A stretch of DNA of 64,000 nucleotides from Alphaproteobacteria bacterium (GTDB taxonomy: Bacteria > Pseudomonadota > Alphaproteobacteria > CAAHEQ01 > UBA3637). Each line of letters starts with the position of its first letter. Position 1 is the first letter of the stretch. Under the pieces are notes generated by a model. That model searched no databases and was not told the DNA's origin. It saw only the letters and a program-made list of their open reading frames with translations. Positions 44,824 to 64,000 of this stretch are shown here, piece after piece. A program made the position numbers and the translations under genes. The stretch is taken from NCBI GenBank assembly GCA_045605805.1, contig JAZUQR010000010.1, positions 77,372 to 141,371 on the forward strand, in the 5' to 3' direction.

Positions 44824-45930
44824 TTACACCCGCATTGGCATCAAAACAAATAAAGAAGATGTATCGGCCGCATCTTGCAAAATCACCGGTGACACACCGT
44901 CTTGAAGTGTGATTTTTACATTTTGTCCTTTGATTTGCGCCAAAATATCCAACAGATAACGATAATTGAAACCAATATCCAATTCTTCGTTCATATAGGT
45001 GGCATCCAATTCATCTTCCGCAGAACCTTCATCCACCGCTGTGGCAGACACTTGAAGCAGGTTTTCACGCAAAGATAATTTGATACCTTTGGATTTTTCG
45101 CACACAACGGACACCCGTTCAATAACATCGGCCAACACTTTGGCATCGGCTTCTAATGTTTTATCATTTCCGGTTGGAATTACTTTTTGATAATCCGGAT
45201 ATGTGCCATCCACCAAACGGGAAGACAATTCAATTTCGTTCATTTTGAAACGGATTTGATTGGCCGACAAAGCAATGTGCAGATTTTCCACATTATCCCC
45301 TGCCAATTTTGCCACTTCGCCAATTGTTTTTCTGGGTACAATCACACCAGGGATATCTTTTGCCCCTTCCGGCAGTGTTGTTTTAGAACAGGCCAAACGA
45401 TGACCGTCTGTGGCCACAGCAACCAACATGCCTTCTTTTTCATGCAAATAAATACCGTTCAAATTGTAGCGTGTTTCTTCCAAAGAAACGGCAAAACTTG
45501 TTTGGTTGATAAGAGTCAAAAGCTGTTCGGCCGGCAAATCAAACACAAATGGTGTTTCTTCCTTGGCCATGGAGGGGAATCCTTCCGGCGGAATGCTTGC
45601 CAACGCAAACTTAGAACGCCCAGAGGTGAGATTTACTTGATTTGTTTCTTCCGAAAAAGCCAAACAGACTTGCGCCCCAGACGGCAAGCGACGGACAATA
45701 TCATACAACTTATGTGCCGGCACCGTGATTGCCCCTTCTTCTTCCACTTGGGCCGAGATTTTTTCCGAAATCTCCAATTCATTATCGGTGGCTTTTAACA
45801 AAACGCCTTCTGCGGTTGTTTCAATCAACACATTGGCCAAAATGGGAATTGTTTGACGGCGTTCCACAATGCTTTGTGCGTGTGCTAATGCTTTCAATAA
45901 AGCGTCTTGTTCCACTGTAATTTTCATCAT
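44824..45930 (-). CDS. dnaN: DNA polymerase III beta clamp
   Basis: ERRQTIPILAN, ATDGHRL, DGTYPDY and C-terminal LMPMRV. Start is one of ATG 45936/45930/45927. Confidence 0.97.
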   Translation of the reverse strand: MMKITVEQDALLKALAHAQSIVERRQTIPILANVLIETTAEGVLLKATDNELEISEKISAQVEEEGAITVPAHKLYDIVRRLPSGAQVCLAFSEETNQVNLTSGRSKFALASIPPEGFPSMAKEETPFVFDLPAEQLLTLINQTSFAVSLEETRYNLNGIYLHEKEGMLVAVATDGHRLACSKTTLPEGAKDIPGVIVPRKTIGEVAKLAGDNVENLHIALSANQIRFKMNEIELSSRLVDGTYPDYQKVIPTGNDKTLEADAKVLADVIERVSVVCEKSKGIKLSLRENLLQVSATAVDEGSAEDELDATYMNEELDIGFNYRYLLDILAQIKGQNVKITLQDGVSPVILQDAADTSSLFVLMPMRV

Positions 45931-46076
45931 TTTCATTATCCTTTCTTTTAACTTTGTTTTTCTGAGATTATTGTACCTTATTTTTTTGAAAAAAACCACC
46001 GAAAAAACACTTTTTATATATTTTTCTTTTTTTATTTTGAAAAATCTGTATAATAGAAAAAAACAAGGGGGATTTT

Positions 46077-48395: not shown

Positions 48396-48407
48396 GTTTT
48401 CATCTTA

Positions 48408-48456
48408 CAAAAAAACACCCTGTGCGATGACAGGGTGTCTTTGTTTTGTTTTGCTT
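48408..48456. terminator. Bidirectional terminator, copy 1 of a duplicated element
   Basis: ACACCCTGT-GCGATG-ACAGGGTGT hairpin with flanking A/T tracts. Confidence 0.85.
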
Positions 48457-48859
48457 ATTTTTCTGAGGTTTTATCCAGATTCATCATAATATCATTCTCT
48501 TTGAATGTCCACATTGCCCCAGTTGCAGGGTCAACAATTAACGCTCCAATTAATCCACCAAAAATTATATTTCCCCAATACCATCCGTTCATTCGTGTTT
48601 CTAAAACTTTTTCTGTTGGTGTATAACCTTTCTTTTCGGCTTTAATTGTATATGTTTCCCCTGAAAAAAAACCACGTTTTTTATCCAATGACAAAGAAAT
48701 CGGGGCCTGTCCTGAATAAACAGTTTTGTTTTTACTATCTGTGATTTTTAATGAGGTTTTAGGCGCATTACTGTTAAAAGATACTGTTTCATATTGAGAA
48801 TCAACGATTGAACAGCATCCCGACAACAATAATAAGCTGAGAATTAAAGATGTTTTCAT
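48455..48859 (-). CDS. Small lipoprotein (conserved hypothetical, PEGA-like)
   Basis: Lipobox LSGC; NGWYWGNIIFGGLIG..VDPATGAMW motif. Confidence 0.8.
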   Translation of the reverse strand: MKTSLILSLLLLSGCCSIVDSQYETVSFNSNAPKTSLKITDSKNKTVYSGQAPISLSLDKKRGFFSGETYTIKAEKKGYTPTEKVLETRMNGWYWGNIIFGGLIGALIVDPATGAMWTFKENDIMMNLDKTSEK

Positions 48860-48878
48860 TTTCTTCTTCCTTTCTTAT

Positions 48879-48903
48879 AAAAAAAACGCCTTGATGAGAG
48901 GCG
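48879..48903 (-). terminator. Leader attenuator hairpin just upstream of the lipoprotein RBS
   Basis: Minus strand CGCC-TCTCATCAA-GGCG followed by T8. Confidence 0.55.
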
Positions 48904-49055
48904 GTTGGAAGTTAGAAAACTATCAACAGAATAGCGTCACATATTCGGATTAAACCTTATTTTGCAACCTTCCAACCCTTTAAGGTTGGAGTTTTACATC
49001 CTTTCAGATGCTGTTGAGAGGTTTTCTAAGCCTCGGAACAGGAATCGCCTGTTCC
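48900..49055 (-). ncRNA. C4/CI antisense-RNA-like structured element with upstream complementary target
   Basis: Closing stem GGUUGGAAG/CUUCCAACC, two internal hairpins, and loop UCUGUUG plus bulge UUUCUAA complementary to upstream UUAGAAA..CAACAG (49011-49029). Confidence 0.6.
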
Positions 49056-49061
49056 AAAATA

Positions 49062-49090
49062 AGTTTACTCGTTTTCTTCTTAATTGTCAA
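49062..49090 (-). promoter_or_regulatory. Promoter of the C4-like/lipoprotein cassette
   Basis: Minus strand TTGACA-17 bp-TAAACT. Confidence 0.65.
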
Positions 49091-49110
49091 GATGCCCTTT
49101 ATTCTATATA

Positions 49111-49156
49111 ACAAAACACCCTGTGCGATGACAGGGTGTTTTTGTTTTTTTGCTTT
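49111..49156 (-). terminator. rpoC terminator, copy 2 of the duplicated element
   Basis: 27 bp identical to 48412-48438, plus a similar T-rich flank. Confidence 0.85.
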
Positions 49157-52100
49157 TATGCTTCGGCAGGGTTTGCCGTTTCTTTGTTGCGAGCATCCAA
49201 AACCTCTTGGTCTTTGATGGCTGCTTCGGCACGCAAACGCTTGATTTGTGCGCCTGTTCCGGCAGGAATCAAACGACCCACAATCACATTTTCTTTCAAT
49301 CCTTTTAATGGATCTCTGCGTCCGGCTGTTGCCGCTTCCGTCAACACACGAGTTGTTTCTTGGAAGGATGCGCCTGCGATAAAGGATGGTGTTTGCAAGC
49401 TGGACTTTGTAATACCAGACAGCACTGGGGTCACTTTGGCAGGCTTACCGCCAGCGGCCAACGCTTTTTGGTTTTCGTTCAACAATGCGTCTTTATCTAC
49501 TTGTTCACCCAACAACAATGTTGTATCTCCGGCATCGGTGACTTCCAATTTACGCATCATTTGGCGGATAATCACTTCAATGTGCTTATCATTGATTTTC
49601 ACACCCTGCAAGCGATAGACTGATTGAATTTCTTTAATCAGGTATTTTGCCAAGGCTTCCACGCCCAATACACGCAAGATATCGGCAGGCACCAAGTCGC
49701 CTTCAACAATTTCATCACCCTTATGGATTGTATCCCCATCATAAACTGTGGGTGTTTTTCCTTTTGGAATGATATAGCTGTGTTTCTTGCCTTCTTCATC
49801 AATGATGGACATAATGCGTTTTGTTTGGAACTCTTCGCCCAATTCAACTTGTCCGTCTTGTTCGGCAATGATGGCGGCATCTTTTGGACGACGGGCTTCA
49901 AACAATTCACTCACCCGTGGCAAACCACCGGTAATATCTTTTGTTTTTGAATCACGAGGAATCAACGCCAACACATCCCCTTCATGTAATTCTTGCCCAT
50001 CATTCACTGTGATGATAGCCCCTTTTGGTAAGTACACCCGCACATCGGCATTTTTGGCATTTTTCACCACTTCACCTTTTTCATTCAATAAGGTAATATG
50101 CGGACGCAAGGCACGAGCAGAAGCAGATTTTTCGGATTCCATAATCACTTTTTCCGTTAAACCTGTTCCCATATCTGTTCTTTCATCCAATGTTTTACCA
50201 ACAATCATATCTTGGTATTTCACACGACCGGAAGCATCGGCAATAATCGGGCTTGAATATGGATCCCATTCCACCAAGCGAGTGCCTTTTTTCACTTCTT
50301 GTCCGTCTGTCACCATGATTTTGGACCCATAGATGAGTTTATGACGCGCTTTTTCACGGCCGTTTTTATCCACCAACACCATTTCGCAGTTTCTGGACAA
50401 CACAACGGTATCTCCGTTAGAGTTTGTCACATTGTTGGCGTTTTCCAAATGAACTGTGGCTTCAAATGCAGCATCAATGGCTGATTCTGCCCCACGCTGT
50501 GCTGTACCACCAACGTGGAAGGTACGCATGGTCAACTGAGTACCCGGTTCACCAATGGATTGTCCGGCAATTGTCCCAACAGCTTCGCCCAAGCTGACCA
50601 ATGTGCCACGAGCCAAATCACGCCCATAACATTTGGCACAGATGCCATCTTCGGCTTCACAAGTTAAAACAGAACGAATCTTCACTGTATCAATGCCCAC
50701 ATTATCAATGGTATTGACATCTGATTCATCAATCAATTTACCTTTGGCAAGCAACACTTCGCCTGTGGTTGGGTGTTTAATATCTTCTGCCAAAGTGCGC
50801 CCCAAAATCTGATCCCCAGTGGAAGAAATCACATCACCACCTTCAACAATCGGGCGGACGGTAATGCCATTTTCTGTGCCACAATCTTCCATTGTAATAA
50901 CGGCATCTTGTGCCACGCCCACCAATTTACGGGTCAAATAACCAGAGGAAGCTGTTTTCAAAGCCGTATCGGCCAAACCCTTACGGGCACCGTGTGTGGA
51001 AATAAAGTATTCCATCACCGTTAAACCTTCCTTAAAGTTAGAACGAATTGGGGTTTCAATAATGTCTCCGTTTGGTTTGGCCATCAAACCACGCATACCA
51101 CCCAACTGGCGCATCTGGGTTTGAGAACCACGAGCCCCAGAGTCGGCCATCATATACACCGAGTTCACTGGTTTGCCGGCTTCCGATTTGGACATTTCGG
51201 CCATCATCTCTTTACCAACGGCATCATTACAAATTGACCAAGCATCCACCACTTTGTTGTATTTTTCCAAACGAGTGATTAAACCATCTTGGTATTGTTG
51301 TTCGTATTCTTGTGTTTTGGCTTCTGTTTCGGCCATCAATTTCTTTTTGGCAGGTGGCACAATCATGTCATCCTTACCAAACGAAATGCCCGCCAACGCA
51401 GCATATTTGAAGCCCAAATCTTTCACTTTGTCGGCAAAAAGGCATGTTTCTTGCTGACCACAATGATGATAGACTTCGCCAATGATGTCGCTGATATCCT
51501 TTTTCTTCAACAATTTGTTGATCAACTTGAACGGAATCTTATCCGAATCAGGCAAAATTGTGGAGATAATCACACGCCCTGGTGTTGTTTCAACCACTTT
51601 TGTGACTTTTTCCCCGTTTTCTTCCATAATTGGCATCCGAACTTTAATCTTGGCTTGTAAGGAGACTTCGTGATTGAACAAAGCGTGTTCAATTTCCTGC
51701 GGACATGAGAAAATCATCCCTTCGCCTTTTTCACCGTCTTTTTGCATGGACAAGTAATACAAGCCCAGCACCATATCCTGTGACGGTTCAATAATCGGTT
51801 TACCAGATGCAGGAGACAAAATGTTGTTTGTTGCCATCATCAACACACGAGCTTCTAATTGAGCTTCTGTGGACAAGGGTACATGCACCGCCATTTGGTC
51901 ACCGTCAAAGTCAGCGTTAAAGGCTTTACAGGCCAATGGGTGCAATTGAATAGCTTTCCCTTCAATCAACACCGGTTCAAAAGCCTGAATACCCAAACGG
52001 TGCAAGGTTGGCGCACGGTTCAACAATACAGGGTGTTCATGAATCACTTCGGACAAGATATCCCACACCACAGGGATTTCTTTTTCCACCATTTTCTTGG

Positions 52101-53292
52101 CAGCCTTAATTGTATTCGCATGACCGTATTGTTCCAACTTTGCATAGATAAATGGTTTGAACAATTCCAACGCAATGCGTTTGGGCAACCCACATTGGTG
52201 CAGTTTTAATTCCGGACCCACTGTAATCACAGAACGGGCCGAATAGTCCACACGTTTACCCAACAAGTTTTGACGGAAACGACCTTGTTTACCTTTTAAC
52301 ATATCCGCCAAAGATTTGAGTGGGCGTTTATTTGTGCCAGTGACTGCACGACCACGACGACCGTTATCAAACAACGCATCCACCGCTTCTTGCAACATCC
52401 GTTTTTCGTTGCGAATGATGATTTCTGGCGCACGCAATTCCAACAATCTTTTCAAACGATTGTTGCGGTTGATGACACGACGGTATAAGTCGTTCAAATC
52501 AGATGTCGCAAAACGACCGCCATCCAATGGAACTAATGGACGCAATTCCGGAGGAATCACAGGTAATACATCCAAAACCATCCATTCCGGACGAGAACCA
52601 GATTCCAAGAAGGCTTCCACCAATTTTAATTTTTTAATAATTTTTTTGCGTTTCATATCCGATTTTGTTTCAATCAATTCGGCACGCAAGTTTTTGGCTT
52701 CGGTACTTAAATCAATTTGACTTAACAATTCTTTAATGGCTTCGGCCCCAATGCCCACACGGAAAGAATCTTCACCATATTCTTCCAAGGCTTGGTTATA
52801 TTGTTCTTCTGTCAATAATTCCATTTGTTTCAATGGTGTTAAACCTGGTTCAATCACAATGTATTTTTCAAAATATAACACTGCTTCCAATTGTTTTAAC
52901 ATCATATCCAACAAGGTGCCAATACGGCTTGGCAATGATTTTAAGAACCAAATGTGTGTCACCGGTGAGGCCAAGTCAATATGCCCCATGCGTTCACGAC
53001 GCACTTTGGACAATGTCACTTCCACACCACATTTTTCACAGATAATTCCCCGATATTTCATGCGTTTATATTTACCGCACAAACATTCATAGTCCTTCAC
53101 GGGACCAAAGATTTTGGCACAGAATAATCCGTCTTTTTCGGGTTTGAATGTCCGATAGTTGATTGTTTCCGGATGTGTCACTTCACCAAAGGACCAGCTG
53201 CGGATTTTTTCCGGAGAGGCAATAGAAATCCGAATGTCGTCAAACATTTGTGGCGACGGCATTTGACCAAAAGTTTTAATCAGTTCGTTCAT
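49156..53292 (-). CDS. rpoC: RNA polymerase beta' subunit
   Basis: NADFDGD, Zn-finger cysteines and [13 protein letters not shown]. Confidence 0.99.
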
Positions 53293-60729: not shown

Positions 60730-60805
60730 TGGCAGGGGCAGTAGGCCTCGAACCCACGACCTTCGGTTTTGGAGACCGACGCTCTACCAACTGAGCTATA
60801 CCCCT
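60730..60805 (-). tRNA. tRNA-Trp (CCA)
   Basis: AGGGGTATAGCTCAGTTGGTAGAGC..CTCCAAA..GGTTCGA..CCCCTGCCA cloverleaf, 76 nt, encoded CCA end. Confidence 0.97.
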
Positions 60806-60834
60806 TGCGCCTTATTCAAACTTACGGTGGCGAT

Positions 60835-60863
60835 ATTATACAGGAAAACGCTTTGCTTGTCAA
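60835..60863 (-). promoter_or_regulatory. Consensus sigma70 promoter for tRNA-Trp-secE-nusG
   Basis: Minus strand TTGACA-17 bp-TATAAT followed by a GC-rich discriminator. Confidence 0.8.
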
Positions 60864-60897
60864 CCCCCTTTTTAAGGATTTTTTAGCAAAGCGTTTT
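60845..60897. repeat. Perfect 13-bp inverted repeat bracketing the -35 element
   Basis: AAAACGCTTTGCT (60845-60857) and AGCAAAGCGTTTT (60885-60897). Confidence 0.85.
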
Positions 60898-60910
60898 GAT
60901 ACGGTTTAGT

Positions 60911-62662
60911 TTATTGACAAATATTCACTGTTTCTGTACATGAACCATCACAGTAACAGAAGTGGTGTTCGTGTTCGTAAGACTTCTCATCACATCTAGA
61001 TACTGTTGTTGTGCCACACTTCCTACAGTTGCTATATTTTCTGCTAATCGTAGACTGACTTTCGTGAGAACCATATTTTGTTTCACAAGTATAAGTTCGG
61101 GTTGTTGTACAGCTTATACATTGTGTGCTGGCGGTTGCGCCGGTGTTAGAGGTGGTTTGATTAGCACCACAGGCTTCACATCTTGTTTGCCCTGTTTTGT
61201 CTTGATAGTATCCCTTAGGACAAGCGTCACAGGCTGTATTCCCAGCGCTGGATTTATATGTACCTTTAGCACATTGTTGGCAAGTAGTACCGTTCAATGT
61301 ATAGCCGGCATTGCACACACATTGTGTGCTGGCGGTTGCGCCGGTGTTAGAGGTGGTTTGATTAGTACCACAGGATGTACAACTTGTTTGCCCTGTTTTG
61401 TCTTGATAGTATCCCTTAGGACAAGCGTCACAAGCTGTATTCCCAGCGCTGGATTTATATGTTCCCGTGTCACATGCTTGGCAAGTGCCGTCTTTTAATG
61501 TATAGCCGGCCTTACACTGGCATTGATCGCCGCTCCATTCACTATTTGCTGGGCAGGCCTCACACTGTTCACTTGTGCTATTCCACTTTGGCTTGTCCTC
61601 TGGGCACACACAGTCTGTGCTGGCGGTTGCGCCGGTGCGAGTGGTTATTTGTCCACCATCACAGTCTTTACAACTTGTTTGACCTATCTCGTCTTGATAT
61701 TTACCCACGGCACAGGCTGTACAGGTGTCATTCCCTAGCCAGTCTTTATATGTACCCACGGCACATGGGGTGCAAGTGCCGGCATTTTCATATTCTCCCT
61801 TATTACACACGCATTCTGAAGCCATCCATATTTTTCCGCTGCTGCTGTCACAAACACATGCGTTGCTTTGGCAGATTCGGCCACCATCACAGTGGTCATT
61901 GCTGGTACATTCCACACAGCTATTCGCTGAACAATATGGCCTGTCGGATGGACATTCACATAAATTGCCACACATCTCTGAACAGCATTTTCCGTTTGCA
62001 TCTTCTTTTTTATCAGAGGGGCATTTATGAAACTCCGCTGGTGTGTCTTCATCTGGGGTGTCATACAAATACACTTTACCCTCTTCACCTGCATCTGTTC
62101 TGCCACTTACATTAAAGGCAGCACGGAAACGCCCTGTCGTTTCACAGTTTTGAATTGTCGCTGATGACAATGGGGCAAAAGTTGCTGCTTTCTTATTCTG
62201 TTGTTTAATATCCTGCAACAGGTCTGTAGCTGAGTCTATTTTTGATGTTTGTCCCGTCTTAAACACCGCCGAATATTCGCTAAAGGCATTTATATATTCA
62301 GCGCAGGTGCCAGGTTCAATTTGTAAATCAACAATATATTCTTTGAGCCCCATGGCGGTGACAACCATAAAATGGCCATCTTCTTCCGACAAAATCATCA
62401 CTTCCCCACTGCTCGTTGTTTTTGGACCAGATACAACGGATTTAATGGATATTGGTTCGTTTATGTTGCTTTTCCTAATAATGCGGGAGTTTTGCAAGGC
62501 CGCAATAACTGTGTTCACATGTTTCGCATTTTCTTGCTTTTTAGCCCTTTGTACCAACCAGCTAAAACCAAATACACCACTCAGCGTTATTATTCCCACC
62601 AGAATCAAAACGGCAATCATTTCTAGCATTGTGCGACCAGAATCTTGCTTTTTACTTGTCAT
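60911..62662 (-). CDS. Type IV pilin-like protein with C-terminal Cys-rich GCC2/GCC3 (ephrin-receptor-like) repeats
   Basis: Leader QDSG|RTMLEMIAVLILVGII; CPKGYYQDKTGQTSC-type repeats. Start set at ATG 62662. Confidence 0.82.
   Translation of the reverse strand: MTSKKQDSGRTMLEMIAVLILVGIITLSGVFGFSWLVQRAKKQENAKHVNTVIAALQNSRIIRKSNINEPISIKSVVSGPKTTSSGEVMILSEEDGHFMVVTAMGLKEYIVDLQIEPGTCAEYINAFSEYSAVFKTGQTSKIDSATDLLQDIKQQNKKAATFAPLSSATIQNCETTGRFRAAFNVSGRTDAGEEGKVYLYDTPDEDTPAEFHKCPSDKKEDANGKCCSEMCGNLCECPSDRPYCSANSCVECTSNDHCDGGRICQSNACVCDSSSGKIWMASECVCNKGEYENAGTCTPCAVGTYKDWLGNDTCTACAVGKYQDEIGQTSCKDCDGGQITTRTGATASTDCVCPEDKPKWNSTSEQCEACPANSEWSGDQCQCKAGYTLKDGTCQACDTGTYKSSAGNTACDACPKGYYQDKTGQTSCTSCGTNQTTSNTGATASTQCVCNAGYTLNGTTCQQCAKGTYKSSAGNTACDACPKGYYQDKTGQTRCEACGANQTTSNTGATASTQCISCTTTRTYTCETKYGSHESQSTISRKYSNCRKCGTTTVSRCDEKSYEHEHHFCYCDGSCTETVNICQ
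61118..61510. repeat. 201-bp period tandem duplication (67 aa)
   Basis: Copies start at 61118 and 61319 and are near-identical for about 145 bp; a partial third copy lies at 61616-61637. Confidence 0.9.
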
Positions 62663-62702
62663 ATTTATCCCCTTTTTAGTCAAAAAAAACATTATTTTTG
62701 AC

Positions 62703-62732
62703 AGTATAGGCTTATTTTTTCAGAAATGTCAA
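62703..62732 (-). promoter_or_regulatory. Putative promoter of the Cys-rich pilin gene
   Basis: Minus strand TTGACA-18 bp-TATACT. Confidence 0.55.
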
Positions 62733-62749
62733 GGGATAATTTTGAAAAT

Positions 62750-62782
62750 AAAAAAATCCCCGTCAGGAGGGTGCGGGGATTT
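62750..62782 (-). terminator. rRNA operon terminator
   Basis: Minus strand AAATCCCCG..CGGGGATTTTTTT. Confidence 0.75.
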
Positions 62783-62826
62783 GAAATGTTATTTTTTATG
62801 AAAAGAAGTGTTGAAAGAACATAAAA

Positions 62827-62944
62827 GGTCTGGCAGCGACCTACTCTAGCGCAGCTTAAGCTGGACTACCATTGGCGTAGAAGAGTTTCACGTCCGAGTT
62901 CGGGATGGGATCGGGTGGTTCCTCAACACTATAACCACCAGACC
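62827..62944 (-). rRNA. rrf: 5S rRNA
   Basis: Terminal stem GGTCTGG/CCAGACC and CCGATCCCATCCCGAACTCGG..GTGAAA motifs; ends approximate. Confidence 0.95.
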
Positions 62945-63037
62945 ATTTATGTCCTTTCTAGGTCTTTTATAAACAAAGGCGTATTTTTTAAGATTACATA
63001 TACGCATAGAATTTGAAGATAAATCTTCAAGTGAATA

Positions 63038-64000
<963 letters not shown>

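Follow-up and report, generated by a model that had tools for sequence, protein, structure and literature searches.

Why should a lipoprotein gene on a small bacterial chromosome be preceded by a leader that is laid out like the antisense RNA of a phage? The question is raised by positions 48860–49090 of a 64,000-nucleotide stretch of DNA (the window, to which all coordinates refer) from an Alphaproteobacteria bacterium (assembly GCA_045605805.1, contig JAZUQR010000010.1, positions 77,372 to 141,371), for which a prediction made from the letters alone had proposed an antisense switch on the minus strand, similar to phage C4 and CI RNAs. This stretch contains the promoter and the approximately 190-nt leader of a lipoprotein gene, and the promoter, hairpin, targets, UCCAACC segment, cloverleaf and terminator listed in the original prediction were all found by scan and fold at the places given for them (Table 1). 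The bulge and the second hairpin loop of the cloverleaf are called a' and b' here, and their upstream complements boxes a1 and b1. The stretch encodes a real folded leader RNA, far beyond chance. It is one of about 600 copies with private codes, situated before mostly cell-surface protein genes in gut Alphaproteobacteria with small genomes, and these copies make up a large uncatalogued family of leader RNAs of the C4/sRNA-Xcc1 type in this reduced-genome group. The RNA family is new, whereas the kind of design, that of C4 and sRNA-Xcc1, is known.

The element stands out from chance because its loop and bulge match the upstream boxes, as had been predicted. At this locus the perfect complement comprises 9 nt for a' with a1 and 7 nt for b' with b1. 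The long-range test covered 133 unique copies for which 110 nt or more of upstream sequence was available, and demanded that both complements be perfect Watson–Crick runs of at least 6 nt, with a1 located 5–22 nt before b1. Both were present in this order in 108 of the 133 copies; when each RNA was instead paired with the upstream region of another copy, 0.5 copies qualified on average and 2 at most (20 permutations). For the b segment taken separately, a run of at least 6 nt occurred in 116/133 copies versus 31/133 in the controls. The matching is achieved with very different sequences, there being 110 distinct b' and 51 distinct a' segments in the same set. The cloverleaf is also the minimum free energy (MFE) shape of the isolated 78-nt piece (−22.6 kcal/mol, z = −3.6), and the 206-nt leader folds with −63.4 kcal/mol (z = −4.56); in both cases none of 200 shuffled sequences was as good.

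Covariation among homologues, the lack of which had been named in advance as an argument against the element, is clearly present. In a MAFFT alignment of 53 leaders (A6) that was made without reference to a structure, the a1:a' helix extends over about 155 columns, and all seven of its pairs are changed on both sides, with 92.4% of the cells paired against at most 50.5% in slid controls. The 5'-terminal hairpin H0, which was also recovered by RNAalifold, has all eight pairs changed on both sides and 83.8% of the cells paired. For cloverleaf plus terminator, judged on an alignment fitted to the model, these values are 16 of 24 pairs and 97.8% of the cells, a level that none of 500 shuffles reached; the same hairpins were recovered independently by RNAalifold from the unfitted alignment, with 23 of 28 pairs compensatory. 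All four modelled stem pairs of the terminator hairpin covary. Since the segments of the b1:b' and anti-closing pairings are out of register in A6, these two were judged by run tests that do not depend on register. The anti-closing segment was found to track the class of the closing stem, with a mean perfect run of 5.7 nt to its own arm and 4.3 nt to the arms of other classes (64 copies), and the mutually exclusive folds that the original prediction had deduced from UCCAACC thus involve a conserved pairing.

In one respect the earlier view has to be abandoned. A single co-opted module that senses foreign C4 RNAs does not agree with a count of six in this genome and some 600 in the order, where every copy has a code that matches its own leader. 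Three close copies were found by BLASTN and six in all by covariance model in the genome-wide search that had been recommended, every one with matching boxes. Of the two other close copies, one stands before a second lipoprotein gene and one before a pilin-like gene; the three divergent ones are followed by an unknown open reading frame (ORF) in one case and by SLOG/YspA-like ORFs in two. In close copies 1, 2 and 3 the loop/target pairs are CUGUUG/CAACAG, CAAUUG/CAAUUG and CAACUG/CAGUUG, and the bulge/target pairs are GUUUUCUAA/UUAGAAAAC (copy 1) and GCUUUCUA/UAGAAAGC (copy 3), so that a and b boxes are compensated among paralogues of which the 3' arm and terminator are identical.

A covariance model built from the three close copies (R1) gave about 499 matches in 72 of 80 genomes of the bacterial family. 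A second one, built from 51 matches (R2), detected about 594, distributed over 74 of the 80 genomes tested in the order, with up to 44 per genome. Beyond the bacterial family, 10 of the 149 genomes that represent other families of the class had R2 matches; one of these, flagged as unpublished, contributed locus L081 to the set of 134 copies used below, and no claim depends on that locus alone. A pattern scan with one genome per species produced more than 119 stretches, and R2 confirmed 79 of the 80 that were taken as loci. Their records are metagenome-assembled genomes (MAGs) of uncultured Alphaproteobacteria from the rumen and from rabbit, deer, sheep and human gut. A pattern match in Lysinibacillus was not confirmed by R2 and is a chance match. 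Good copies also occur on two MAG contigs labelled as Melainabacteria (L122 and L145, Gastranaerophilales and Avigastranaerophilus records, 90.8 and 82.3 bits with R2); either these contigs were wrongly binned or the element was transferred. A structured RNA family of about 600 copies, well supported by hundreds of compensated pairs, is thus captured by no Rfam model, and it resides in uncultured gut and rumen bacteria of which the regulation is almost completely uncharted.

The likeness to C4 that was originally claimed holds for the topology, the order of the parts and the a1/b1 boxes, but not for membership of the Rfam families. The C4 model (RF01695, cut-off 45 bits) gave no match at E ≤ 10 on positions 48400–49200, at E ≤ 1 in the genome or at E ≤ 1 in 20 related loci, and c4-a1b1 (RF03163, cut-off 46.7 bits) and c4-2 gave none at E ≤ 10 on 48400–49200, at E ≤ 1 in the genome or in the related loci. 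The positive control, phage P1, scored 68.8 bits with C4 and 51 bits with c4-a1b1, and R2 did not match phage P1, so covariance-model similarity is absent in either direction. What is shared with the C4 RNAs of P1 and P7, as judged from the annotation of the P1 record and the Rfam alignments, is the order of promoter, a1 (within a hairpin loop) and b1, followed by a closing stem that encloses a first hairpin, a second one with b' in its loop and the a' bulge, and finally by RCC, as well as the use of the a and b sequences as a variable specificity code. Unlike C4, the leader family has neither an icd/ant cargo nor the a2/b2 sites at the ribosome-binding site (RBS) through which C4 acts. Matches of at least 6 nt at the RBS were found for a' in 11/85 copies (control 5.8%) and for b' in 7/85 (control 6.6%), which makes P1-type sites no family trait. 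A looser test flagged 21/133 copies, nearly all through GGAAG:CUUCC and A/T-rich runs, and only L132 is convincing; the present copy has AGAAAA (6 nt) before the AUG as its sole a2-like match. Furthermore, the terminator follows directly after the RNA, whereas P1 has a terminal hairpin and U run between b1 and c4, recognised below cut-off by the isrK model, and the copies are chromosomal and number up to 44 per genome.

The CI RNA of phage P4, with its segments seqA, seqB and seqC, is a comparable case. There, an operon leader is processed to a small RNA of which an internal sequence pairs with an upstream box in the same transcript, and this pairing is linked to premature termination of transcription. 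P4 CI also has a downstream box (seqC), pairs through one segment only and serves in phage immunity. By description only, the leader family resembles it in that a small RNA would be derived from a leader with an upstream complementary box, and differs from it in having two pairing segments and a setting outside phages.

The only relevant Rfam match at E ≤ 10 is to sRNA-Xcc1 (RF02221), with 33.8 bits (E = 5.6 × 10⁻⁴) and end to end (model positions 1–87); nine of the 20 related loci scored 30.9–39.7 bits, all below the cut-off of 53. Similarities with sRNA-Xcc1 include the 9-bp closing stem, a first hairpin that carries the internal-loop motif AAUA...GAAUA, a second one whose loop varies, the 3' bulge, upstream a1..b1 boxes and a gene directly downstream. 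In a sample of the phylum, 24 of 151 genomes have sRNA-Xcc1 matches above cut-off, often in multiple copies. Of 20 true sRNA-Xcc1 loci from other Pseudomonadota (L269–L288), 18 have upstream a1..b1 boxes, and in 12 the RBS of the following gene is covered by a2..b2 boxes; the same test detects a1..b1 in 110/133 copies of the leader family. Because of these frequencies, sRNA-Xcc1 is itself a C4-type module, even though Rfam lists it without a clan and places C4 and c4-a1b1 in clan CL00128, and the leader family is a distant relative of its a1b1-only form. This also suggests that sRNA-Xcc1 is a cis-linked gate of its downstream gene. The leader family differs from the 12 loci with a2..b2 by having no such trait. 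Its three additions are the anti-closing segment, the 5' hairpin H0 and a conserved terminator hairpin, the loop of which reads CUCAUCA; its hosts are gut Alphaproteobacteria MAGs, with mostly envelope proteins as cargo. In the accounts of sRNA-Xcc1 on which we draw, it was first described from an integron cassette of Xanthomonas campestris, and is treated as a trans-acting, virulence-linked small RNA (sRNA) that is often multi-copy (PMC12189769) and located upstream of the gene symE (bioRxiv 10.1101/2025.06.18.660453).

A large chromosomal set of C4-like sRNAs, Group 1 of Acinetobacter baumannii (Weiss et al. 2016), is processed from longer transcripts according to PMC5320573. As far as that source is drawn on here, these sRNAs share with the leader family the many chromosomal copies, the longer transcripts that include an upstream region, and variation that is mainly in a' and b'; they match the Rfam C4 motif, which the leader family does not, and are not described there as box-matched leaders before envelope genes. 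Among the papers searched on C4 antisense RNA (Alphaproteobacteria; 2015 onward) and on sRNA-Xcc1, no description of the leader family was found.

The surroundings of the copies are constant in several respects. The best promoter-like site ends 28–37 nt upstream of a1 in 85 of 107 copies, and its score is at least 10/12 in 59 of the 107, and within 14 nt after the 3' hairpin there is a run of at least four T in 129/134 copies and of at least five in 112/134. The RBS follows approximately 10–25 nt after this terminator-like hairpin and U tract, so that a stem-loop with U tract stands between promoter and RBS, as in attenuators. The start codon lies at a median distance of 19 nt behind the RNA model (134 copies examined, 114 with an ORF). 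This leaves no room for a second promoter, and the genes therefore depend on the leader transcript. When the first downstream ORFs of the 134 copies were sorted crudely, 27 carried a lipobox and 22 were pilin-like (GRSMVEML...), 25 had a different hydrophobic segment at the N-terminus, 40 showed no obvious signal, and in 20 copies no ORF of 40 aa or more starts within 120 nt. By this measure about 74 of 134 are exported- or envelope-like. The 40 without a signal include at least five lipoproteins missed by the pattern, about 14 spurious frames in the spacer of high-copy genomes, and some glycosyltransferase-like starts. That spacer is seen in genomes with 30–44 copies (L063, L066, L068, L093 and L114), where the RNA is followed by approximately 170 nt of conserved sequence with the spurious frame MHQKNVRF..., and the pilin-like gene begins after it. 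Contigs of such high-copy MAGs often end inside copies, and true copy numbers may be higher.

Our preferred explanation is that the element is a self-addressed antisense leader of the C4 type, an architecture that can be read from the pairings, and that it gates read-through into its own gene, a regulatory output that we infer; we put the probability of this explanation at about 0.55. Most transcripts would stop at the terminator and give a small RNA. RNase P may then trim this RNA to the cloverleaf form with a' and b' exposed, similar to P1 C4, which is cut from its precursor by RNase P, and to the Acinetobacter Group 1 RNAs, which seem to be cut at a GG(W) start in the manner of the same enzyme (both according to PMC5320573). 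In the leader family the closing stem starts with GGU, GGC or GAC, and GCC or ACC then follows in 98/127 copies, these bases also being part of the terminator stem. Together with the RNase P RNA that is encoded in the genome (280 bits), such start and RCC-type end features are consistent with 5' maturation by RNase P. The cloverleaf RNA would recognise no a1 and b1 boxes other than those of the leader from which it derives, either in cis or on sister transcripts, and the choice between the self-paired form and the cloverleaf would determine the share of transcripts that undergo processing, are stabilised or continue into the gene. The most likely result, in analogy to C4 and P4 CI, would be negative feedback that is private to each gene. 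Whatever these leader RNAs do is done without Hfq, for which no gene was found in this genome (estimated completeness 98.85%).

The two folds on which this explanation is built deserve closer consideration. In six full leaders the MFE structure is the self-paired form, with a1:a' (extended by GAGG:CUUC), b1:b', the anti-closing hairpin and hairpin I, and in all six it is better by 8.7–13.2 kcal/mol than the best fold in which the closing stem is enforced. Since the closing stem is nevertheless maintained by compensatory changes, two pairings of the 5' arm that exclude each other are kept up in the family, a hallmark of a switch. Both folds contain the terminator hairpin. The alternatives involve the closing stem, and at most its last C, a possible fifth terminator pair, touches the terminator. 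An antiterminator formed from H0 (AGGCG) was considered, is available in copies 1 and 2 and is absent from copy 3, and was dropped.

Several observations speak against a gate of this kind. The comparison of fold energies ignores pseudoknots and the kinetics of co-transcriptional folding. No competitor of the terminator hairpin is evident in the folds of the six leaders, where it was not searched for specifically, and the effect of either fold on termination is thus left unexplained. Strict pairing is lacking in 25 of the 133 copies, many of which have a 5-nt run at the right place. Codes within a genome are all distinct (10/10, 11/11, 4/4 and 3/3 in four genomes), and none of 218 cross pairs reaches the pairing criterion; random draws from a diverse pool would do about as well (approximately 0.8 expected from the control rate). 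Selection for orthogonality is therefore unsupported, and action in trans is something we infer. The segment formed by a' and CUUCC matches the RBS over at least 8 nt in 17/92 copies versus 6.7% in controls, a weak indication that the 3' arm masks the RBS. Finally, what matches the region in public runs are contigs, from one metatranscriptome run (9% of sampled words) and three runs of unknown kind, which reveal neither transcript ends nor levels.

Some of these points would be expected if the leader acted in cis only, the pairings shaping a single 5' untranslated region as a 5' stabiliser or as a site for RNase P or RNase III, with fixed expression, no RNA acting in trans and no feedback. The calculated preference for the self-paired fold in 6/6 leaders, the conserved hairpin at the very 5' end and orthogonality that does not exceed chance all fit such a structural leader. 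It would also have no targets elsewhere, and a genome-wide search for composite sites (a, 0–20 nt, b) with all six codes indeed gave only the cis boxes, their own antisense strand and extras at chance level. Still, we regard a purely structural role as unlikely, as it offers no reason for the compensatory upkeep of a closing stem that excludes the self-paired fold, or for near-complete turnover of the a and b sequences beside nearly invariant stems.

The same search weighs against an independent gene for a trans-acting sRNA, as in the literature on sRNA-Xcc1, with targets elsewhere and with the downstream gene being merely the next one, reached by leaky read-through. An sRNA gene would have a promoter and terminator-like end of its own, as observed here, the nearest Rfam family is one annotated as trans-acting, and the 20 copies without an ORF could be accommodated. 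However, the composite sites are confined to those just mentioned, the short distance to the RBS provides no space for another promoter, and the genes that follow are biased to envelope proteins, so this possibility appears quite improbable. A remnant of prophage immunity (P1 immI or P4 type) or a repeat like a miniature inverted-repeat transposable element (MITE) without RNA function, to which the module between direct repeats with a module-free allele, the contig breaks at the conserved core that are expected of a repeat, and one divergent copy adjoining a retroelement cassette could be attributed, is very improbable and largely refuted by covariation, since hundreds of compensated base pairs imply selection on RNA pairing, a2/b2 sites and an antirepressor gene are absent, the neighbours are rpoC, dnaN and a gene for a Lon-like protease with no flanking phage genes, as stated in the original prediction, and R2 confirmed none of 54 pattern matches on viral contigs, a scan that covers exact-pattern copies only.

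A wider and more tentative form of the antisense-gate explanation can be envisaged, which we hold to be possible but rather doubtful. Gut Alphaproteobacteria of 1–2 Mb that lack Hfq would run up to about 44 mutually orthogonal, self-addressed antisense gates, one for each surface-protein gene (pilin-like, lipoprotein or glycosyltransferase-like), with each RNA addressing its own leader only. If this is true, every envelope gene would have a private RNA feedback or bistable switch, and the principle of phage immunity codes would have found a chromosomal, cellular use, perhaps for surface variation from cell to cell. With regard to C4 itself, the family indicates that cells use its design, a folded antisense RNA with a two-box address, as a standard leader of envelope genes without the RBS targets of C4. 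The absence of these targets allows a direct test of what the upstream a1/b1 boxes do, which has long been unclear.

Table 1 Features of the leader, its gene and their surroundings (window coordinates)
Feature	Position	Strand	Remarks
Sigma-70-type promoter TTGACA-17-TAAACT	49062–49090	minus	Consensus scan, 10/12 matches
5'-terminal hairpin H0, GGAACAGG / CGAUU / CCUGUUCC	49035–49055	minus	Begins approximately at the predicted transcription start
Small hairpin GAGG/CCUC	49018–49034	minus	Loop presents box a1
Box a1, UUAGAAAAC	49021–49029	minus	In loop of GAGG/CCUC hairpin
Box b1, UCAACAG	49011–49017	minus	Perfect 7-nt complement of b' loop, 39 nt upstream of cloverleaf
Spacer hairpin CAUC/GAUG	48997–49010	minus	Between b1 and anti-closing segment
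Anti-closing segment UCCAACC	48984–48990	minus	Complementary to 5' arm of closing stem
C4-like cloverleaf, 75 nt	48903–48977	minus	sRNA-Xcc1 model match, 33.8 bits, below cut-off 53
Cloverleaf closing stem GGUUGGAAG/CUUCCAACC	48969–48977 with 48903–48911	minus	
Cloverleaf hairpin I, GUUGCA/UGUGAC	48936–48968	minus	
Cloverleaf hairpin II, GCUAU/AUAGU	48919–48935	minus	b' loop UCUGUUG at 48924–48930
a' bulge UUUCUAA	48912–48920	minus	3' bulge of cloverleaf
Terminator-like hairpin CGCCU / CUCAUCA / AGGCG + U8	48879–48903	minus	Consensus scan
RBS GGAAG; start codon	48866–48870; 48857–48859	minus	
ORF of 134 aa with lipoprotein signal (MKTSLILSLLLLSGC...)	48455–48859	minus	Gene directly downstream
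Direct repeat copy 1 (terminator hairpin and flanks)	48406–48463		Downstream border of module
Direct repeat copy 2 (rpoC terminator)	49107–49164		Upstream border of module
rpoC	49156–53292		Module lies on minus strand, downstream of rpoC and its terminator
Lon-like protease, 772 aa	46077–48395	plus	LonB-type AAA, LonC helical and Lon_C domains; convergent with lipoprotein gene
dnaN	44824–45999	minus	Neighbour
tRNA, 5S rRNA, part of 23S rRNA	60733–64000	minus	At window end

The genome that carries the element comprises 1.21 Mb in 31 contigs, with 40.7% G+C. At gathering thresholds, Rfam models matched only rRNA and tRNA in the whole window, and the 134-aa ORF downstream of the leader had no Pfam family at E ≤ 0.01. 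The module is flanked by two 58-nt direct repeats with 83% identity and a spacing of 701, of which the terminator hairpin occurs nowhere else in the genome, and the 701-bp unit between them consists of promoter, leader, ORF and terminator. A 313-nt contig of another sample (run X1) joins position 48412 to 49113, and an allele without the unit thus exists. Because of the flanking repeats and this contig with the same site but without the unit, the 701-bp unit behaves like an insertion/deletion cassette. The sixth, divergent copy of the element lies outside the window (contig C8, approximately 49.3–51.9 kb; locus L214, 2776–5372), and a YspA/SLOG-like ORF, a bAvd-like ORF and a reverse transcriptase are located downstream of it, which is the gene set of a diversity-generating retroelement.

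Two short 7-mers that recur in reversed order inside the lipoprotein gene had been suspected to be there by chance, and this is borne out by the genome-wide number of reversed b..a sites within 20 nt, which is 2 as compared to about 2.6 expected (estimated from 254 a-boxes and 1231 b-boxes). In the spacer hairpin the letters differ in all three close paralogues, with retention of pairing. The loops of H0 (49043–49047) and of the terminator hairpin (48892–48898) are nearly invariant throughout the family, reading YGAUK, with a nearly invariant GAU core, and CUCAUCA in alignment A6, and they are mutually complementary over 4–5 nt (UGAU[G] with [C]AUCA). This match may reflect a kissing contact between the loops or a protein site common to both, the invariance of the loops placing it beyond the reach of a covariation test.

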